Virus record (IMG/VR): IMGVR_UViG_3300011008_000023
Location: 1-64,000 of that record
Reading direction: 5' to 3' (one strand)
DNA: 64,000 nucleotides
Origin: a virus
Taxonomy: Duplodnaviria > Caudoviricetes
Under the pieces are notes generated by a model that saw nothing but the letters and a program-made list of their open reading frames with translations, was not told the origin of the DNA and did not search any database. The position numbers were made by a program, and so were the translations under genes. This document shows positions 6,842 through 59,972 of the stretch, in pieces (position 1 is the first letter of the stretch; each line of letters opens with the position of its first letter).

Positions 6842-7381
6842 ATGGAAGAGCAGAAGTTCCGTTCTAGTATTAGAAGGGTAAATGAATCAAGAAAGCACAA
6901 AGTTACTGGCTCTTTAGGAGTTTATGATGCATATAAATGGTATAGAAAAAATAAACCTAAGGAGAAGAAATATATACTATCAGAGAGTCAGTACTTTACA
7001 ATAATAAGAAGAATAAATGAAGCCTTAAGAGAGGAGCTATTATTAACCGGGGACCTTATGTTTCCTTGTAGAATGGGAAGACTTGAAATTAGAAAACACC
7101 CAGCTATAATTACTAGTGATGGTAAAAAAATAAAAACTAATTTACCAATAGATTGGGATGCCACTTTAAAATTGTGGTTTGAAGATGAAGAGTGTCGCAG
7201 AGATAAGACATTAGTTAGGACTAATGTTTCTGAGATATTTAGAGTGTATTACAATAAGGGCAAAGCTAATTACAATAATAAATCATTCTATCAATTCTCT
7301 ACTAATAGAGAACTTAAGAGGCTTCTAAAGGATGCCATAAAGAACAATATTAATTTTGATGCATTTGTAAATTATATATGA
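6842..7381 (+). CDS. IHF/HU-like basic DNA-binding protein of the crAss structural module
   Basis: Very basic; helix-helix then L.FP.RMG.LEI.K strand pattern of the HU/IHF fold. Confidence 0.6.
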   Translation: MEEQKFRSSIRRVNESRKHKVTGSLGVYDAYKWYRKNKPKEKKYILSESQYFTIIRRINEALREELLLTGDLMFPCRMGRLEIRKHPAIITSDGKKIKTNLPIDWDATLKLWFEDEECRRDKTLVRTNVSEIFRVYYNKGKANYNNKSFYQFSTNRELKRLLKDAIKNNINFDAFVNYI

Positions 7382-7382
7382 T

Positions 7383-8045
7383 ATGGAATATATAAGTATT
7401 AGACAAATATTAGATGACCTCCTTGCAGATGATATGTTAAAAGATCTTTCATTAGAAAGAGCTGTTAATTATGCTGTAGAGTTTATCAAGGTGGTAGGTA
7501 TGCCTCCTATATTTGAATCTAAAGTTGCAACTATACCTATTAAGGATTATAGAGGAGAACTCCCTTGTGATTTCTATGAAGTTATTCAAGTAAGAAAACC
7601 CAATGGATTTGCATATCTCTCTGCAGAAGGAAGTTTCCTTGAAGGAGGGAAGCAAAATCTTTCAACTTATCATATTAAAGGAAGGATTATATTTACTTCC
7701 ACAAAAGATGACGATATAGAAGTTGCCTATAGAGCTATTAAAGTAGATGATGATGGATTTCCTTTAATACCAGATAATGGTACTTTTGCAAGAGCTTTGG
7801 AACTCTATATTCAAAAGAGATATTTTACTATTCAGTTTAATAATAGTAAGATTCCTTTAAATGTTCTTCAAAACACTCAGCAAGAATATGCCTTCTATGT
7901 TGGTCAGGCACAATCAGATTTGATTAGACCTAACATTGACCAAATGGAGTCTATTAAGAATATGTGGAATACTTTAATTCCTAAGATTCACAAACACACT
8001 GAGAGTTTTAAAACTATTAATTCACCAGAGATTTTATCATTTTAA
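7383..8045 (+). CDS. Tail tubular/ring protein
   Basis: ELPCDF, VAYRAI.VDDDGFPLIPD motifs typical of crAss tail tubular proteins; lies just upstream of the muzzle gene. Confidence 0.7.
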   Translation: MEYISIRQILDDLLADDMLKDLSLERAVNYAVEFIKVVGMPPIFESKVATIPIKDYRGELPCDFYEVIQVRKPNGFAYLSAEGSFLEGGKQNLSTYHIKGRIIFTSTKDDDIEVAYRAIKVDDDGFPLIPDNGTFARALELYIQKRYFTIQFNNSKIPLNVLQNTQQEYAFYVGQAQSDLIRPNIDQMESIKNMWNTLIPKIHKHTESFKTINSPEILSF

Positions 8046-8047
8046 TT

Positions 8048-11000
8048 ATGGCAATTAATAAGGCACCTTTTGCTATTAGTGGCATGACTAGAGACTTGGC
8101 TGCATCAAAGTTTAGTTCTGAATATGCCTATGAAAATAAGAATGTAAGAGTAGAGGCTACTGATGAAAATACTACTGGAGCACTTGTTAATGAGAGGGGC
8201 AACAAAAAAGTTGACACTGGAATATTCTATGAAGGTATTAGTGGTACACCTATAGGTCAGGCAGTACTAAATGATGAACTTGTATTATTTACAACAGGGG
8301 GTACTCCAGCTCCTATAATTCTGACAAGGTTTGTTACTGATATAGGTATTGCAAATAGATATAAGAGATACTACACCTATAATGATGCTATGAATGATAG
8401 TAATGGTGAGTATCTTGACCAAGAATATAGCGTAGGAGATTATAACTACTTTTTTGGTGATGAAGATTCGTATATTGGATTCACTGATACTGATGGTATT
8501 AGAAAAGTGTTATCCCCTATTAATGGAGGGTACCCAGTACTTGTAATGAGTGTTGATTTTAACTTTGACTGTCTCTACTATGTATCTTCTTGGGAAGAAG
8601 ATGATGAGGCTCCAGATTTTAATGGTCACACATTATCCTTTAGATTGTATACAATTGCTGATTTGACTACTGCAGATAATATTTATAAGATTAATCTCAG
8701 TGACACTACTGACTTGGGTGGTGAAGTATTATACAGTGGCAATTTAGGATTTACAACAGATAATCCAATTGAGTGTATTACTGTCTTTGAAAATAGTGAT
8801 TTAAAGAAAGTATATTGGACTGATGGTGAGAATCAGCCAAGAGTAATTAATATTGCTGCTAGTGCTGCTGCCAAAGCAAAGTGGGATGATAACTCCTTTG
8901 ATTTTGTAAAAAAACTTTCCCTTAAAGAAGAAGTTGAAGTTACAAGAAACCTTGTAACCAATGGCTCTTTTGCTCCTGGTGTTGTGCAGTATTGCATGAC
9001 TTATTATAATTTATATGGTCAGCAGAGTAACATATTCTACACATCTCCTCTTTTATATGTGTCTTACAATGATAGAGGTGCAGATGCTGCCGATAAAGTT
9101 GGAGTAAGTTTCTCTTTTAAAATTAATCAGTATGACTCTAAATATGAATACTTAAGAATCTATTGTATTCATAGAACCTCTTTAGATGCTACTCCATATG
9201 TTAGAAAAGTTGTAGATTTAGCAGTACCTACAGCTGGTTATATGTATTACACAGATTATGGTAATGCTGGGGAAACTATTGACCCCACAGAGTTGTTATT
9301 TATAGGTGGGCAAGTTGCTTCTTTTGGTACAATGGCTCAAAAGGATAATACTTTATTCTTGGGAGACATTCAAATTAAAAAGCCGACAGTTAGTAAAGCA
9401 ATTAAAAATTCTATAAGAAACCTTGTTCCTAGTGCTTATGCTACAAGAAGTGTAGGAGGATTATCTAGACCTAGTGGATTATATACTTATAATAACCTGC
9501 TTCAATATGACTCTTCAAAGATTACTACCTTTAAAGTAGGTGAAACCTACAGACTTGGAGTACAACTTCAAGACCAATATGGGGTTTGGTCCTCACCTAT
9601 TTGGGTGACTGACTATGAAGTAAACAATGGTTCTTTCCCTATACTTGATGACTCTGGTAATTTTTATAAGATTAATATCTCTACCAGTTTCTCTGCTATA
9701 TTTAGTAATGCTTTGTTAGACGTAGGATACTTAAGAATTAGACCTGTAATAGTTTATCCCTCTATTACAGATAGAACAATTGTTTGTCAAGGAGTCCTTT
9801 GCCCTACAGTATATAATGTAGGAGATAGGTATAATAATTCCCCTGCTGTACAGTCATCTTGGTTTTTTAGACCTAATGCTCCAGTAAGCAATATATACAA
9901 CAGTGATTTAATAAGTAGTGGTGGTACATATGATGCTACTTACACTCCTGTCATGTCTAATAGTAGAGATTTGTATAATGATAATGTCATTAATGCAGCA
10001 ACTGTTAACAATGGTAAATGGGCAGAATTCAGACATAATAAGAAAATCCCAGGCAACTCTAAGGAGAATGCTGAGATTCAGTGCATTACACATCCCCCCG
10101 AGCCATTCTTACAAGATGTTAATGAGAGTTATACAGAAAGTAGTGACCCTGCACAATGGGTATCTGAGAATAAAGAGTGCTTCTATGTAGACCAATCTAT
10201 TGTAACAATGCATTCTCCAGATATTGAGTTTGATAAGGAAGTAAGAAGTATTGACTTTTCTAATCTTAAGTTAAGGATTGTTGGGTATATACCTCTTACA
10301 TCTCATGTATCAGACATAGACATTTCTGTTTCTACTCCACCACTAAACTACTCTAAAGGAAGTGATAACGAATACACAGATACAACTCCGGGATTATATA
10401 AAGAGAAAGTTTCCTATATGTTCACTTCTAATGGCAGATATGGATGGAAAAGTGCTCTTTCTGGCCCATATTGGCTAGATGAATTATATGGCTCTGCTGT
10501 AGATAATAGTGAAAAAAAGAATGTTGGATTTATAGTTTATCCTTGGCACAGAAATGGTTCTTTAAATAATACTAGGTCTGTAGAATCGGGGCAAGCAAAA
10601 TCTGCCATGCTTCTTCAGAAGAAAATGTCTATTCTTAGACACTCATATTATACAGAATGGTTTAATACACCTTGGTATGCTTATGAGACAGGTAGTTCTA
10701 CAAAAACAGGAATTTCTGGAGTTATGGTATATGATTCCAATGAAGTTACAAATATTAAACTTCCTGAACCTGAAAACTCTAATATAGGAGAAATTAATTA
10801 TAGTGGCAATATTGATAAGATAATCACCTTCCACACCAATCCAAAACCTAGGAGTAATCAATATGCTCTTGATAGAGATACTGATAACTTTAGTGGTTTG
10901 GATTCAACCACAAGTTCATTCTACCCTATTATAGTAGCAAAAAGCTCAACAGATTTAACTATTTGGGAAGGGAAGACAAATCCTTCTAGTGTAGAACATT

Positions 11001-54432: not shown

Positions 54433-55146
54433 TTAATTAAAATCATCAGCAACTTGTCTAAGTACCTCACCAATATGTTCCTTAAGGAAATTATTAACTT
54501 GGTCGCTTGAAAAGTTATTGAAATCTGGTTTACTAGGTTTTACATAAAAGTCAGAAGAGTCATCTATTACAATTCTGCAGGGAATAGCGGAGTTCCCCCA
54601 ATTTGAGATAACGTATGACAAATAGTATGGAATTCCCTTTCTTGCGATAGCTTTATTTACAGTAGTCTCTTCTGTAAATACAGAGGGATGTACATGTATT
54701 ACATACTCTTGAACTGAAATTATGGAGTTCTCTTCCTTCAAGTGCGCAGTAGACAGTAGTAAAGGAGTATAATTTTTATCTAAAAGAATTCCCCTATTTC
54801 CATAATAGGTGTCATCTTTTACTTTGAAACTGCCTAGTCTTGCATCACACCATCTACAGATATATTTAAATAATGCATCTGCTCCAGAGCAAACCTTTAC
54901 GAATGGTTCTCTGTATAATGGAGCTACAATATCTTCAGGTTCTGTAAGATTCTCTAAATTTGATGTTTCATCAATATATATCAATTGGGATGGAATTATA
55001 CACTCGTGTGGAGTGATGGTAGCCTTCACTATACCTCTATAAGCATCAATAGTTCTAGCATCATAAACATGATTAGTGAGTGATTGAAGACTTCCTCCCA
55101 TTACAAAGTTGTTCATTGTACTTCGATATGATGCACTAAATTCCAT
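54433..55146 (-). CDS. Hypothetical protein, last gene of the Ubl/E2/JAB/E1 cluster
   Basis: 237 aa; start overlaps the E1 stop by 1 nt (TAATG). Confidence 0.6.
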   Translation of the reverse strand: MEFSASYRSTMNNFVMGGSLQSLTNHVYDARTIDAYRGIVKATITPHECIIPSQLIYIDETSNLENLTEPEDIVAPLYREPFVKVCSGADALFKYICRWCDARLGSFKVKDDTYYGNRGILLDKNYTPLLLSTAHLKEENSIISVQEYVIHVHPSVFTEETTVNKAIARKGIPYYLSYVISNWGNSAIPCRIVIDDSSDFYVKPSKPDFNNFSSDQVNNFLKEHIGEVLRQVADDFN

Positions 55147-56051
55147 TATGTAATAACTTTAAAGAACATTGTTTCTGCAGTGTATTCAGTATAAAAAGGC
55201 AGGTCTCTTGGAACAAGAGGGTCACATTCATTAGCACAGAAATTAACAAATAAATTAACCATAACTGAAGCAATCATATTTGCCATGAAACTGGTTTGCT
55301 TATAACTACAAATAGTTTTATCAGCTTCTGCATCAGTAAATAGAAACTTATCAGCATATCTCTGCATACTAAATTCATCATCTCCTCTTATACAAAGAAT
55401 CTGAAAACTTTCAGCAGCCAATCTACCATCTATGAAGAGATATTTTTTACGAAGGTCTGCTGGTGCTTCTTGAACTTGTCTTTTCCAAGCATTATAGAAT
55501 GTTCTTCTTGCCTCCATATTATCAAAACCACAAATAGCTATTTCGGTACATAGCTCTGTACTATTTGTGAATCTCTCATTAGCAGTTGAAGCATAATAGT
55601 CAGAGTAGGTACGCATGTGCTCTGCTGTTGCACTTACTTTAAGTTGTCCTACATCATCAGTTTCATATAGCTGACCTGATATATTTGCAGATTCTACATA
55701 ATCATCATCATATAAGATAATGGTATCTGGATGCATCCTTGCCAGTAAGAATGCTACATAACTTCCAATTCCTCCTAATCCAGCCAAAGTAATTCTCTTA
55801 GTTCTAATATTATAATACCACGTAGCACCACTAAATCTGCTTGTAGTTTCTTCAACCAATATACTACCAGAATTTTGAGGAATTACTTCAGGGACTTCTT
55901 CTTCTGGAGGTGATGATGTATTTGTAGTTTCTGTACTGGTGTCCCATACATCTACACCCTTTGCTGCAGAATACTCTGCCATTGCTCTTGCAATGATAGA
56001 GTCTATTTCATCTGCTATTCTTGTACTACTGTAATCTTGTGACATAATCAT
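55146..56051 (-). CDS. ThiF/MoeB/E1-like adenylyltransferase (Ubl-activating enzyme)
   Basis: GLGGIG (91-96), YDDDYVE..N...Q, K138, GFDNMEAR, IDGR; candidate catalytic Cys248 (TICS); no CxxC zinc pairs. Confidence 0.88.
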   Translation of the reverse strand: MIMSQDYSSTRIADEIDSIIARAMAEYSAAKGVDVWDTSTETTNTSSPPEEEVPEVIPQNSGSILVEETTSRFSGATWYYNIRTKRITLAGLGGIGSYVAFLLARMHPDTIILYDDDYVESANISGQLYETDDVGQLKVSATAEHMRTYSDYYASTANERFTNSTELCTEIAICGFDNMEARRTFYNAWKRQVQEAPADLRKKYLFIDGRLAAESFQILCIRGDDEFSMQRYADKFLFTDAEADKTICSYKQTSFMANMIASVMVNLFVNFCANECDPLVPRDLPFYTEYTAETMFFKVIT

Positions 56052-57210
56052 TAAGTATATCTATATACTCATCAATATATTCATTCTTAGGAAGCTTCTT
56101 AAGAGCTGTAATTGTTTTGCTTGCAAGCATTGCTGCAACATCATACTCATCTTCCTTAGGGTCTGTTACTGTATACCAAATTAGGAATTCAATGAAATCA
56201 GTTGCCCAGAAGTAAAATAACTGCATTCCAATATCACCCTTACCAAACCTCTTGTCAAATCTCTTAGAGATGCTGTCTATAACTTTCTTTTTGGTTTCTG
56301 CATCCATCTTAGTTATAGTAACACTTCCGGTAAGGAGCTGATTTACAACTTCCTCAACTGCTGCATCTGTTAGTTTCTGATGTTGTACATCTTCAACTTC
56401 ACTAGGAGTAGAGGCTGATGAGCTTGATTTAGTATCTTCCCACTCTAAATCGTCAAATAATGTAGGTTCTTTATAGTGCTTATTGTAATAACTAGGTAGA
56501 GTATTTTTACTATTTACAGTATCATTATAAATATTTGGGTAGGTATACTGAGGAGTACTTGTTTTTGGTGCAGTCTTCTTCTTACTATCCCTAATCTCAT
56601 TAAGTCTACTATCTATAGTATAGAATGGATTCTCAGATTCTTCTTCTTTTATGACATCTAAATAGAAGTACTCAAGTTCTTCTCCTTCAATAACTTCTTT
56701 TTCTGGAATATCTACTGTTCCATTAAATCCTTCATAAGATAAATTTCTAATAGATTTATACTTAATTTTCCTTGTAATGGCTGCAGTATATGTTCCTGCA
56801 TTATTAACAATGAGAGACACAAAATGATTTCTGTCTTTACCTTCTGATTTAAGAGTATTAAGGTCAGTACCGCTAAAGAAACTCTGCATATTATTATGAG
56901 AGTGTATTAGACCCATCTTACAGTCAAGTAGCTCTGGATTCTCTGCCATATAGCTAATAACATCTGGAGACATATCAAATTCTGTATAGGTAGTACTTCC
57001 TATATCCATAGGCAGAATATCTACACAATTAATTTGCAATGAGTTATCTTCAAATTCTCCAGTAGGAGTATAAAATAGTATACCTGACCATTCTGTACTC
57101 CAAACTCTTTCGCAAAGGAATCTTATGATACGTTCAACCTTTGCAGGAATGATAATTTTATATGTATTTGACCTTTTTATGAGGCTCATCTCCTGTGGAT
57201 TTGCTTCCAT
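56026..57210 (-). CDS. JAB/JAMM (MPN+) metalloprotease
   Basis: E40 (EWSG) plus H103-S-H105-x7-S113-x2-D116, a complete JAMM motif; long C-terminal extension. Confidence 0.88.
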   Translation of the reverse strand: MEANPQEMSLIKRSNTYKIIIPAKVERIIRFLCERVWSTEWSGILFYTPTGEFEDNSLQINCVDILPMDIGSTTYTEFDMSPDVISYMAENPELLDCKMGLIHSHNNMQSFFSGTDLNTLKSEGKDRNHFVSLIVNNAGTYTAAITRKIKYKSIRNLSYEGFNGTVDIPEKEVIEGEELEYFYLDVIKEEESENPFYTIDSRLNEIRDSKKKTAPKTSTPQYTYPNIYNDTVNSKNTLPSYYNKHYKEPTLFDDLEWEDTKSSSSASTPSEVEDVQHQKLTDAAVEEVVNQLLTGSVTITKMDAETKKKVIDSISKRFDKRFGKGDIGMQLFYFWATDFIEFLIWYTVTDPKEDEYDVAAMLASKTITALKKLPKNEYIDEYIDILNDYVTRLQ

Positions 57211-58300
57211 ATCTAAAATTAATTACATTAAATATTTTTGTAAATATATAATTTCCAATCTCTGGACGGATAACTAAAACAAAATTGGGCTCAGATTCAT
57301 TTTCAGCATCTGGTATAGTAACATTAAAATCTGTTCCCTTAAAGGTACATACTTTCTTTCCAATATAAGAACTATAGTCTATTCCATTATTTGATTCTGC
57401 TACAATATGTCCATTAATGAATTTATATTTTGTAATAATACCTGAATGTAACAACTCATTTAATGAGAAATTTAATATTCCTTCATGGTGCTTTTTGTTG
57501 TACCACTTTATAAATAAGTTGCTAATTCTTATAAAGTACTCCGTAGAGGACATAGCTAGAATATAGCAGTTATTTTGATATGTAAACTTAAGTTCATTAC
57601 TATCAATGATGAATTTAATAAAGTCTGCTAAATTAGCTGCTGTTATAATAGGTGAGAGATGCCTTAAACTTATGTGTCCATCTAGATTAACATTATTAAA
57701 TTTAATCATTTGACGTGAATATCCTCCTGCTACAAGACTCTCCAATCTATGATACGGTGTACCCGCAATAGATTCTACTTGTACAAATTTAGATAATTCA
57801 AGACAGAATAAACCCCATAAATCAGCATCAAATTCTTTAATTAAAGAACAGATAGTACTATTAATAGGTCCTCTTCCTGTACATGGATTTTGAAATACTT
57901 CAAAATTGGTTAAAGGAATACAACTTATATGACTATGCATATATCCATTTACAAAATGTAATAAACTATACTCAGACCTATTTAGCCCAAATTTTCCACG
58001 TAGTTGTCCTGATGTATTAATAACAACCTTTGCAAATAAATGATTTATATCAGTAAACTTATCATACTCATTAGTGACTCTCACATGAGGAAAGTGAACT
58101 AATATAAATATCTCACAAGAATCAATATAGTGTTTAACGGCTGCAACACTTGCTGTTCCAGGGAGTGCAGCCTCCACATCAGTAAGACTAGGAACTCCTT
58201 GCATATCCACTTTATCTTCTCCAAAGAAATCATTGAAGATTTCTAAGACTTGCAAGGGTTTCTCCATTGCCGTATTATAGGCTTGTTCTAATACTCCCAT
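57158..58300 (-). CDS. Putative E2-like (UBC-fold) conjugating enzyme
   Basis: YMHSHI...NPCTG.GPI...W..F...L...ES..G.PY resembles the prokaryotic E2 HPH/HPN...C(L)G...PY pattern; candidate Cys140; lies between Ubl and JAB genes. Confidence 0.55.
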   Translation of the reverse strand: MGVLEQAYNTAMEKPLQVLEIFNDFFGEDKVDMQGVPSLTDVEAALPGTASVAAVKHYIDSCEIFILVHFPHVRVTNEYDKFTDINHLFAKVVINTSGQLRGKFGLNRSEYSLLHFVNGYMHSHISCIPLTNFEVFQNPCTGRGPINSTICSLIKEFDADLWGLFCLELSKFVQVESIAGTPYHRLESLVAGGYSRQMIKFNNVNLDGHISLRHLSPIITAANLADFIKFIIDSNELKFTYQNNCYILAMSSTEYFIRISNLFIKWYNKKHHEGILNFSLNELLHSGIITKYKFINGHIVAESNNGIDYSSYIGKKVCTFKGTDFNVTIPDAENESEPNFVLVIRPEIGNYIFTKIFNVINFRYGSKSTGDEPHKKVKYI

Positions 58301-58350
58301 ATAAAATAAAAAAATAAGTGGTGGTAGATAAATATTTCTACCACCACTTA
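58301..58350 (-). terminator. Rho-independent terminator/attenuator right after the Ubl gene
   Basis: Perfect 14-bp stem TAAGTGGTGGTAGA (58315-58328) / TCTACCACCACTTA (58337-58350), followed on the - strand by TTTTTTTATTTT. Confidence 0.85.
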
Positions 58351-58356
58351 AGATTT

Positions 58357-58968
58357 TTACTGATTCAGAAAATCAAACATTTCGTCAATGTCATCATCAG
58401 AGTAAGGAGAGTTATCCCTTACAGTAGTCTTTCCTGCGAGGGTATCACGAATCCAATCTCCCTCATAAGAAAGAATAACCTCATTATCCTCAAGTATTTC
58501 AACCAACTTGAGAATAGCCTCCACAATAACATTGTCACTGCTGTTGTTGGCAGCAGCCTCCTGAGCCTGCTCAATAAGATTCATGAGCTCAGAGTTCTTG
58601 CACTGTGTAAAATTCTTCCCATAGGTAGAAATACATGCATCCTTCAGACCAAGCTCATCAATTGCATCATAGAGAGCCTGACGAGCTTCGGGGAGGGAAG
58701 CACCACTCTTAATCTTCTTATTAGGGTTAGTGAGCATAAATACAAGCTCATTAGTGATATTTCCCTTATAGGAGATATCATGAGGAAGAATAGACTCATC
58801 AGTGAGGAGCTCAGTGTGTGAGAGTCCCTCATAGAAAGTCATTCCCTCATAAGGGATATTCTGGGCACGAAGAGCAGCTTTGAGTTCTGCAAGAGTAGTG
58901 GCATCAGTGTTAACGACATACTTGCTCTGATTGCTAGTGGATACGATGGTAATGTTTCTTGCTTCCAT
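58357..58968 (-). CDS. Putative ubiquitin-like (beta-grasp) protein precursor with C-terminal extension
   Basis: Residues 1-89 follow the beta-beta-alpha-beta-beta-beta pattern (RNITIVS, KYVVNT, TTLAELKAAL, MTFYE, DESILP, ELVFML) and end KKIKSG89; high-expression codon bias. Confidence 0.6.
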   Translation of the reverse strand: MEARNITIVSTSNQSKYVVNTDATTLAELKAALRAQNIPYEGMTFYEGLSHTELLTDESILPHDISYKGNITNELVFMLTNPNKKIKSGASLPEARQALYDAIDELGLKDACISTYGKNFTQCKNSELMNLIEQAQEAAANNSSDNVIVEAILKLVEILEDNEVILSYEGDWIRDTLAGKTTVRDNSPYSDDDIDEMFDFLNQ

Positions 58969-58973
58969 AATTG

Positions 58974-59972
58974 TTAAAAATTGTTAAATAATGATAAAAT
59001 AATTTCTTTAAATTTTTGTTTATCTTTTAAGGAGTGATATAAATCAGATATATCTTTACCTCCATTGAATTTTGGTAATACTATATTAGTGAACCCTGTT
59101 TGTTTGCTTAATTTCTCTCCATCAATTAGCCCTGCTTCATCGCAATCAAACAGAATATAAATGTGCTTAAACCTCTTCTTTAATTCACTAACTGCAGTAT
59201 TACTCATTGTATAGCCTTCACCCTGGGTGGCTAAACAAGGAATGCCAGTATTAGACCATAAGCACAGTGCGTCTTTTAATGAGGAGCATATACAAATTCT
59301 TTCTCCCTCTTTTGGAACTTTGGTCCACAGACTTATTACAGAACTGTCTGTACTAGTGCACCACTTAAAACCTCTCTTATTAAAAGGTTGATAAATTTTA
59401 ATACTGATATTTCCTTCTTTCTTTTCTACATATGCGTAGGCATACTTATCTGCCCCAAAAACATATCTTTTATTTCCCTTAGTAATAATTTTGTGAGATA
59501 TTGGATATACATCTGCATATTTCAACCACTCTAATGACACTCCAAAAGAGTCCCAATATTGTATATCGTGTTTTCTCCAATCTCGTACTTTGATTTCTAT
59601 TTTGGATTTCTCTTTTTCTTTAAGAATAGTTCTTGTACTTCCACCAACTTCTTTAGTAGTGATTTCTTTATTGTCTTTGTGAGATAGAAAATCCTCAGCT
59701 ACTTTATCAAGTACTTCATTGTAAGGGATTTGCCACATTTGAGAAAGGAGGTCAAATAAACCTCCTCTCTCTCCCGTAGCAAAATCATTATAGCGGACTT
59801 TACCATCAAATGTATATATTCCAAACGATGGTTTATTATCAGTTCTCAATGGAGAATGAATTACACAAGGTATTTCAATTATATTTAAATACCTAGCCGC
59901 TATATTGACTTCAGTTGTTCGTTCTAATATGTCTTCGAGGCTTACAGATTTCTTACCAGAACTGAAAGCCAT
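58974..59972 (-). CDS. dnaG: DnaG-like primase
   Basis: N-terminal SPLR.D..PSF...DF..G domain; Toprim with DCDEAG and KDISD. Confidence 0.88.
   Translation of the reverse strand: MAFSSGKKSVSLEDILERTTEVNIAARYLNIIEIPCVIHSPLRTDNKPSFGIYTFDGKVRYNDFATGERGGLFDLLSQMWQIPYNEVLDKVAEDFLSHKDNKEITTKEVGGSTRTILKEKEKSKIEIKVRDWRKHDIQYWDSFGVSLEWLKYADVYPISHKIITKGNKRYVFGADKYAYAYVEKKEGNISIKIYQPFNKRGFKWCTSTDSSVISLWTKVPKEGERICICSSLKDALCLWSNTGIPCLATQGEGYTMSNTAVSELKKRFKHIYILFDCDEAGLIDGEKLSKQTGFTNIVLPKFNGGKDISDLYHSLKDKQKFKEIILSLFNNF

Follow-up and report, generated by a model that had tools for sequence, protein, structure and literature searches.

A predicted ubiquitin-like precursor with a conserved C-terminal passenger domain encoded by crAss-like phages

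A 64,000-nucleotide stretch of DNA (positions 1 to 64,000 of IMG/VR record IMGVR_UViG_3300011008_000023; here called the window), belonging to a crAss-like phage in the Steigviridae group, encodes on its minus strand a 203-aa protein (58357-58968) that is predicted to be the precursor of a ubiquitin-like protein (Ubl). The neighbouring JAB/JAMM protease (56026-57210) would cleave the peptide bond past Gly89, releasing two products: an 89-aa Ubl that ends in Ser-Gly, and a helical polypeptide of 114 aa whose tail is acidic and aromatic. A minimal E1 (55146-56051) would adenylate the exposed Gly89 carboxylate, with a probable thioester on Cys248, after which the Ubl would probably be handed to an E2-like protein (57158-58300; Cys140) and attached to targets in the replication phase. 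Cleavage at Gly89 is well supported by comparison, since the Ser-Gly is invariant, the junction behind it is variable and predicted to be disordered, the JAMM site is retained, the gene is naturally split at this point, and the Bil and Bub systems provide precedents. The original prediction, in which the JAB matures the Ubl at Gly89 and releases a second polypeptide, is thus supported by comparative evidence, and a cut by the JAB after Gly89 is considered likely. What the analysis shows directly is the fold, the conservation of Ser-Gly, the character of the junction, the intact catalytic motifs and the existence of phages that make the halves as separate proteins; that the precursor is cut, by which protease, that the Ubl is adenylated and conjugated, and that the freed C-terminal fragment has any function are inferred.

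Results

Gene organization

The features discussed below are as follows (residue numbers refer to the 203-aa protein unless another protein is named).

58974-59972, minus strand: primase
58357-58968, minus strand: 203-aa ORF, predicted Ubl precursor (crAss001 gp79 homologue)
58702-58968, minus strand: Ubl moiety (residues 1-89), with a beta-grasp (1-85) and a basic flexible tail ending in Ser88-Gly89; AlphaFold model, conservation 0.69
58699-58704, minus strand: predicted scissile junction (Gly89 codon 58702-58704, Ala90 codon 58699-58701); conservation, low pLDDT and natural gene splits
58570-58683, minus strand: first conserved segment in the extension, residues 96-133, with a pair of helices flanking a G-K-N-F-T motif and with invariant Arg96
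58411-58569, minus strand: variable linker and helical segment (residues 134-186) within the extension, conservation 0.19-0.29
58360-58410, minus strand: acidic, aromatic C-terminal tail (residues 187-203), conservation 0.57, modelled as a helix with high confidence
58315-58350, minus strand: terminator-like hairpin (14-bp stem with a T run behind it) in the gap separating the Ubl gene from the 380-aa gene
57158-58300, minus strand: probable E2-like protein, 380 aa (crAss001 gp78 homologue), with invariant Y-M-H-S-H and P-C140-x-G-x-G-P-I
56026-57210, minus strand: JAB/JAMM metalloprotease, 394 aa (gp77 homologue), the candidate processing enzyme; Prok-JAB match, JAMM residues
55146-56051, minus strand: minimal E1/ThiF-like adenylating enzyme, 301 aa (gp76 homologue); Pfam ThiF, invariant Cys248
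54433-55146, minus strand: 237-aa protein travelling with the cassette (gp75 homologue), present in 71/90 related loci

The sequence was re-read, and the coordinates and residue strings originally given for the 203-aa ORF were found to be correct. Ser88 is encoded at 58705-58707, and 114 residues lie downstream of Gly89. The order on the minus strand is primase, 203-aa ORF, 380-aa protein, JAB, ThiF/E1, 237-aa protein and uracil-DNA glycosylase (UDG); the Ubl gene sits in the replication module, between the primase gene and the genes for the E2-like protein, JAB, E1 and UDG. Homologues of the 203-aa protein with 36-50% identity are found at a constant locus position in crAss001, DAC17, cr128_1, cr85_1, cr111_1 and others, and the cultured crAss-like phages that carry the Ubl gene are crAss001 and DAC15/17. 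In public records, the E1 is labelled 'thiamine biosynthesis protein' and the Ubl 'hypothetical'.

When 90 related loci were searched with tblastn, the gp78-like 380-aa gene was detected in 87, the JAB gene in 85 and the E1 gene in 83; several of the unmatched loci are short or cut at a contig end. The hairpin at 58315-58350 could act as a terminator or as an attenuator that lets the Ubl outnumber its enzymes. In three loci (L021, L031 and L066, at about 7710-8350), the Ubl gene and the 380-aa gene are separated by ~550 nt, as against ~50-70 nt elsewhere, a gap that may represent another inserted gene.

Structure of the predicted precursor

An AlphaFold model of the 203-aa protein, built from an alignment of 82 homologues, had a mean pLDDT of 90.9. 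Its first 85 residues form strands 4-10, 15-21, 44-47, 52-54, 65-72 and 75-80 surrounding helix 26-35, and its extension contains six helices (93-106, 109-116, 125-142, 145-161, 167-177 and 191-202). Values below 50 were restricted to residues 86-90, the proposed cleavage site.

In a Foldseek search against the PDB, residues 1-85 of the model aligned with ubiquitin, SUMO, UBX, DIX, Dsk2-UBL and MoaD, with probabilities of ~1.0 and E-values of only ~3e-3. VIA-align placed the domain in the same fold family, with middling Z values of 6-7.8, an rmsd of 2.2-2.6 Å across 70-76 residues and a beta-grasp fold in every top row. The putative Ubl domain originally proposed to end at Gly89 is confirmed by the model and by both searches, with residues 1-85 as its modelled ubiquitin-like beta-grasp. 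Like conjugatable Ubls, the protein combines this fold with a conserved Gly that closes a flexible tail beyond the last strand; in the window protein, Gly89 is internal, and an E1 is encoded in the same operon. The model helices and the sequence also bear out the 114-residue helical extension with its acidic, aromatic tail. The likeness of this tail to SSB tails is a resemblance only. Fold-search matches for the whole 203-aa model were dominated by its beta-grasp part.

Conservation of the junction and the extension

The family of the 203-aa protein is large, falling into 3773 clusters when grouped at 90% identity and into 788 at 50%. Conservation was scored in an alignment of 148 of the 150 listed representatives of the 50%-identity clusters, all with E <= ~1e-30, to which the values in this paragraph refer. 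Gly89 is conserved in 100% and Ser88 in 99% of these sequences, preceded by Lys84 (94%), Lys85 (85%) and Ile86 (93%). At the variable position 87, the residue may be K, R, S, E, T or A, position 90 is Ala in just 53% (alternatives being S, M, V, N, I, L and G), and positions 91-94 consist largely of gaps, forming an indel zone of 0-4 residues that is followed by Arg96, conserved in 100%. The mean top-residue fraction was 0.69 for the Ubl (1-89), 0.20 for the junction (90-95), 0.53 for the first part of the extension (96-133), 0.19 for the linker (134-150), 0.29 for the helical part (151-186) and 0.57 for the tail (187-200), in which Y189, S190, E193, I194, M197 and F198 are the conserved positions. 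The length of the extension beyond the Gly ranges from 90 to 172 residues.

Conservation of Gly89 among homologues had been named as a check on the cleavage model, and the residue proved invariant, the Flavobacterium phage Fpv3 included. Of the cleavage motif that was to be checked for invariance (K.SG|A), the Ser-Gly pair is invariant and Ala90 is preferred. As for the extension, the variation asked about is confined to the junction and the linker, while residues 96-133 and the tail stay conserved.

The module recurs in Fpv3, where proteins of 289 and 420 aa are encoded together with a JAB and a ThiF protein beside a UDG. The 289-aa protein matched the crAss profile with an hhalign probability of 97.9 over residues 3-135. 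It is ~20% identical, with a beta-grasp that ends in K-S-G-G at the equivalent position; its remaining ~150 residues are an unrelated acidic, lysine-rich stretch. The 420-aa protein retains the Y-M-H-S-H and Cys-x-Gly motifs. The first ~40 residues of the extension are conserved even in Flavobacterium phages, and they have remained joined to the Ubl from a time before the lineages of crAss and Flavobacterium phages diverged. A fusion kept for so long could mean that the intact 203-aa protein has a role of its own. The cr126_1 homologue (L093:2365-3291) has 308 aa, with an extra segment within the extension linker; the name of its BFVD entry includes a C-terminal domain of ribosomal protein bL12.

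Natural split genes

Short homologues of 91 aa form 15 clusters at 90% identity (45 sequences) and terminate in Ser-Gly followed by KF, IY or IC. A separate C-domain ORF with its own ATG was found in five loci (L008, L010, L092, L096 and L095). On the 101-kb contig L008, the Ubl ORF stops directly after Ser-Gly-Lys-Phe, an HNH/NUMOD4 homing endonuclease ORF (7278-7796) begins 1 nt past it, and a 127-aa C-domain ORF with its own ATG follows 13 nt past the endonuclease stop. The published phage cr106_1 (Mahstovirus faecalis; L092) has the same layout, with the HNH gene at L092:2047-2562. The endonuclease gene is frameshifted in L010 (L010:7291-7804) and reduced to its C-terminal half in L096 (L096:840-1139). 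It is absent from L095, where the Ubl ORF ends in KF and is followed by a 58-nt spacer (L095:3277-3334) and a C-domain ORF that begins with M-S-R, two residues ahead of the invariant Arg. The endonuclease genes thus form a decay series (intact, frameshifted, truncated, lost), and the host gene consists of two cistrons in all cases.

We read this pattern as the insertion of a free-standing endonuclease gene at the most conserved DNA of the Ubl gene, which it would have split, and as a split state that appears to have outlived the endonuclease. Because the halves stay separate whether the HNH gene is intact, frameshifted, truncated or absent, the series shows that they work as separate polypeptides, with the Ser-Gly junction as their functional boundary. 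The 91-aa forms further show that, when the Ubl stands alone, its Gly is still followed by a short tail, which would have to be trimmed as it is in BilA. In a tree of the 89-aa domains, split alleles are found in lineages with Ubl domains only 57% identical, each of which has unsplit relatives at 82-84%; this tree is too short and weak for counting independent split events. Split alleles may have spread selfishly by homing, so their abundance alone is no proof of neutrality.

The 91-aa forms might instead be an artefact of a group I intron that carries the HNH gene and whose splicing restores the fusion. crAss-like phages do carry introns, and in L008 a splice from the end of the Gly codon to a downstream Ala codon would recreate a consensus-like junction. 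However, the HNH ORF fills the insert apart from 1 nt and 13 nt, leaving no space for an intron core, and the usual U and terminal G are missing from the exon boundary. An Rfam scan of L008 7100-8000 found no intron, and L095, with its spacer, its stop after KF and its new ATG, contains no insert and hence nothing to splice. The Rfam result, the filled insert and the insert-free locus led to the rejection of this reading, which is regarded as highly improbable; two separately translated halves remain the preferred interpretation.

The split genes also bear on the possibility that the 203-aa protein is never cut and serves as an adaptor with a built-in Ubl domain, like the UBLs of Rad23, Dsk2 and BAG1. 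Its beta-grasp would then dock on the E1, the E2-like protein or the JAB, its helical part and tail would bind another partner, and the invariant Ser-Gly would serve binding instead of cleavage. The fusion of the Ubl to the first part of the extension across a long evolutionary distance would fit such a role, as would the presence of the two-domain proteins AtBAG1 and hHR23a among the weak whole-length Foldseek rows. Yet natural variants make the halves separately, even once the endonuclease gene has been lost, which argues that the covalent link is not required; moreover, the junction is disordered and variable in length, and an active-looking JAB and an E1 always adjoin. An uncut adaptor is therefore considered improbable, and the protein is treated below as a precursor that would be processed at Gly89.

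The neighbouring enzymes

The 394-aa JAB carries the complete JAMM signature (Glu ... His-x-His-x7-Ser-x2-Asp). H103, H105, S113 and D116 are invariant in 16/16 aligned homologues, Fpv3 included, and E40 is retained in at least 90% of the 16. Its Prok-JAB score of 20.7 bits lies under the Pfam cut-off of 25. The JAB next to the Ubl gene thus looks active, with the full JAMM site retained and with E40 and D116 among its residues. In L095 (5021-6231), the called JAB product has only 103 aa and is followed by a LAGLIDADG-type gene on the opposite strand, which suggests a second mobile endonuclease insertion inside the cassette.

The E1 scored 61.2 bits against Pfam ThiF (cut-off 28.1), with the ThiF domain at residues 75-274. 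Its G-x-G-G-I-G-S loop, D115/D117 and D177-N motif are invariant, as are Cys248, the probable thioester site, and an N-terminal Ser-Arg-Phe motif ahead of the Rossmann fold. The nearest solved sequences are PaaA, UBA5, MccB and ThiF. In the N-x-x-R-Q motif of PaaA and UBA5, Gly replaces the Arg in 18/18 phage homologues (N-[ML]-S-G-Q), for which reason activity of the E1 is not to be assumed. Some E1 homologues (L001, L023, L053 and L059), crAss001 gp76 among them, have ~80 N-terminal residues more than the window E1. ThiF homologues of Xanthomonas and Erwinia jumbo phages were considered as relatives and rejected; the small ORF beside the Xanthomonas phage ThiF gene lacks a terminal Gly.

No sequence family was found for the 380-aa protein, and neither it nor the 237-aa protein had a Pfam match at E up to 1; the 237-aa protein was without a PHROG family as well. 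The model of the 380-aa protein had a pLDDT of 81. Foldseek gave nothing significant for it, and most of the top 50 VIA rows for residues ~4-190 were UBC, UEV or RWD folds, the Cap2 E2 domain among them, with Z values of only 4-5.2. Since these fold matches coincide with invariant His-Ser-His and Cys140 motifs in the alignment, the protein is called probably E2-like.

These assignments leave room for a scheme in which the precursor is cut as proposed and the Ubl is not conjugated, the 380-aa neighbour being no E2 and the E1 adenylating the Ubl for other chemistry, either a thiocarboxylate of the ThiS/MoaD type or a C-terminal modification of the MccB/PaaA type. Such chemistry would be in keeping with a single-domain, ThiF-type E1 whose nearest solved sequences include PaaA, MccB and ThiF, and with the weakness of the E2 fold matches. 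On the other hand, no sulfur-transfer gene was seen among the scanned cassette genes, both the E1 (C248) and the His-Ser-His...Cys motif of the 380-aa protein contain an invariant Cys, and the folds matched by residues ~4-190 of the latter are mostly those of E2-related domains, including that of Cap2. A role outside conjugation is accordingly thought unlikely, and conjugation of the freed Ubl through the E1 and the E2-like protein is the favoured proposal.

The C-terminal domain

The C-terminal domain of the window protein belongs to no Pfam family; among 82 members, sub-threshold Pfam matches to HeH (3/82) and SAP (2/82) were obtained. A profile search of solved structures with this domain gave nothing below E 0.019, the ESM Atlas returned noise-level scores (0.81), and tblastn detected the domain in Steigviridae phages at the Ubl locus only.

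One conceivable function of the fusion is that of a timing device. The Ubl would keep a factor of the replication module inactive, or matched in amount, until the JAB is made; a single cut would then free the tag along with the factor, now active in replication or anti-defence, and the phage E1 and E2-like enzymes would conjugate this tag to proteins of the host or the phage, for instance against ubiquitin-like host defences of the Bil or CBASS type. The factor would be the helical domain, one part of which is possibly DNA-binding and of the HeH type, while its acidic tail would serve for docking. This proposal as a whole is speculative and is put forward as doubtful.

Discussion

Comparison with known systems

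The closest precedents for the proposed processing come from bacterial defence. BilC, a JAB protein, cleaves BilA between Gly97 and Ala98 and can cleave a fusion of BilA to GFP as well; in type II BilA proteins, the Gly is followed by as many as nine residues (10.1101/2023.09.26.559546). The phage cassette would share with BilABCD the four-part set of Ubl, E2, JAB and E1, the phage E2 being a probable one, and BilC resembles the proposed phage JAB in cutting at Gly|Ala to expose a reactive Gly and in stripping even a large C-terminal fusion (GFP). When the window is compared with a Bil-type operon, the Ubl, JAB and E1 are clear, and the E2 is represented by weak fold matches (Z 4-5.2) and a His...Cys motif. 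The two systems differ in several respects. Whereas BilA carries at most about nine extra residues, the phage Ubl is followed by a conserved domain of 90-172 residues. The Bil E1 is large, with an inactive and an active adenylation domain and a mobile Cys domain, in contrast to the 301-aa phage E1 with its one ThiF domain, of which the PADLOC BilD model covers just residues 85-188. Finally, Bil is an anti-phage defence, but the present cassette is carried by a phage.

In type I Bub systems, BubAB is a Ubl-E2 pre-protein that the JAB domain of BubCD cleaves directly behind Gly229, yielding two functional proteins (PMC11601596). As is proposed for the phage, a Ubl is fused to a second functional polypeptide and an operon-encoded JAB cuts behind a conserved Gly; the Ubl can then present its free Gly to a small homodimeric E1 that resembles UBA5. 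The fusion partner in type I Bub is the E2, whereas that of the phage Ubl is a helical domain without E2 features; likewise, the Bub JAB and E1 are fused (BubCD), while the phage E2-like protein, JAB and E1 are separate ORFs. The Bub E1 and E2 are without the invariant cysteines that the phage E1 and E2-like protein keep, and Bub is located in a bacterial defence island, the phage system on a virulent phage. Searches for DUF6527/BubE gave no Pfam match at E up to 1 in the 380-aa or 237-aa proteins, although a distant relative is possible.

A phage-encoded parallel is provided by lambda TAPI, which is composed of a Ubl, a Gly-rich linker and a C-terminal domain, and from which the JAB of TAPK is predicted to release the Ubl after the last Gly (Iyer, Burroughs and Aravind 2006, PMC1779556). 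The TAPI and TAPK proteins of lambda and T1 resemble the present system in that a phage-encoded Ubl closes with a conserved Gly, behind which come a linker and a small C-terminal domain, and a JAB is encoded next to it; they differ in their tail-assembly context without an E1 or E2 and in their Gly-rich linker, and the families are unrelated in sequence. The Ubl gene described here is not part of a lambda TAPI-like cluster (TAPK, TAPJ), its place being in the replication module.

In eukaryotes, ubiquitin-ribosomal protein fusions consist of an N-terminal Ubl and a functional C-terminal partner that is freed by a deubiquitinase, and the enzymes that process ubiquitin fusions are mostly cysteine proteases. 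The Ubl is at the N-terminus in these fusions as in the phage protein, but the partner proteins are unrelated to that of the phage.

The phage system would work like Bil, Bub and lambda TAPI, yet it is a member of none of them, because its E1 is not of the Bil type, its genes are unfused, its cysteines are kept and it is located in a replication module. New in this system are its carriers, which are virulent phages of the crAss-like and Flavobacterium groups, a passenger domain that is conserved, and the evidence from split genes. No paper describing such a ubiquitin-like system for crAss-like phages turned up in the literature searched; papers of this kind may exist outside it.

Implications

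The predicted Ser-Gly end offers a direct handle on the targets, since with most homologues a Ser-Gly remnant should stay on modified lysines after digestion with trypsin. Prokaryotic ubiquitin-like conjugation has so far been studied as a bacterial anti-phage defence (Bil, Bub and type II CBASS), and crAss-like phages rank among the most abundant human gut viruses. Conjugation run by such phages, with a tag that is made as a precursor together with a conserved passenger protein, would, if true, be a new use of this machinery.
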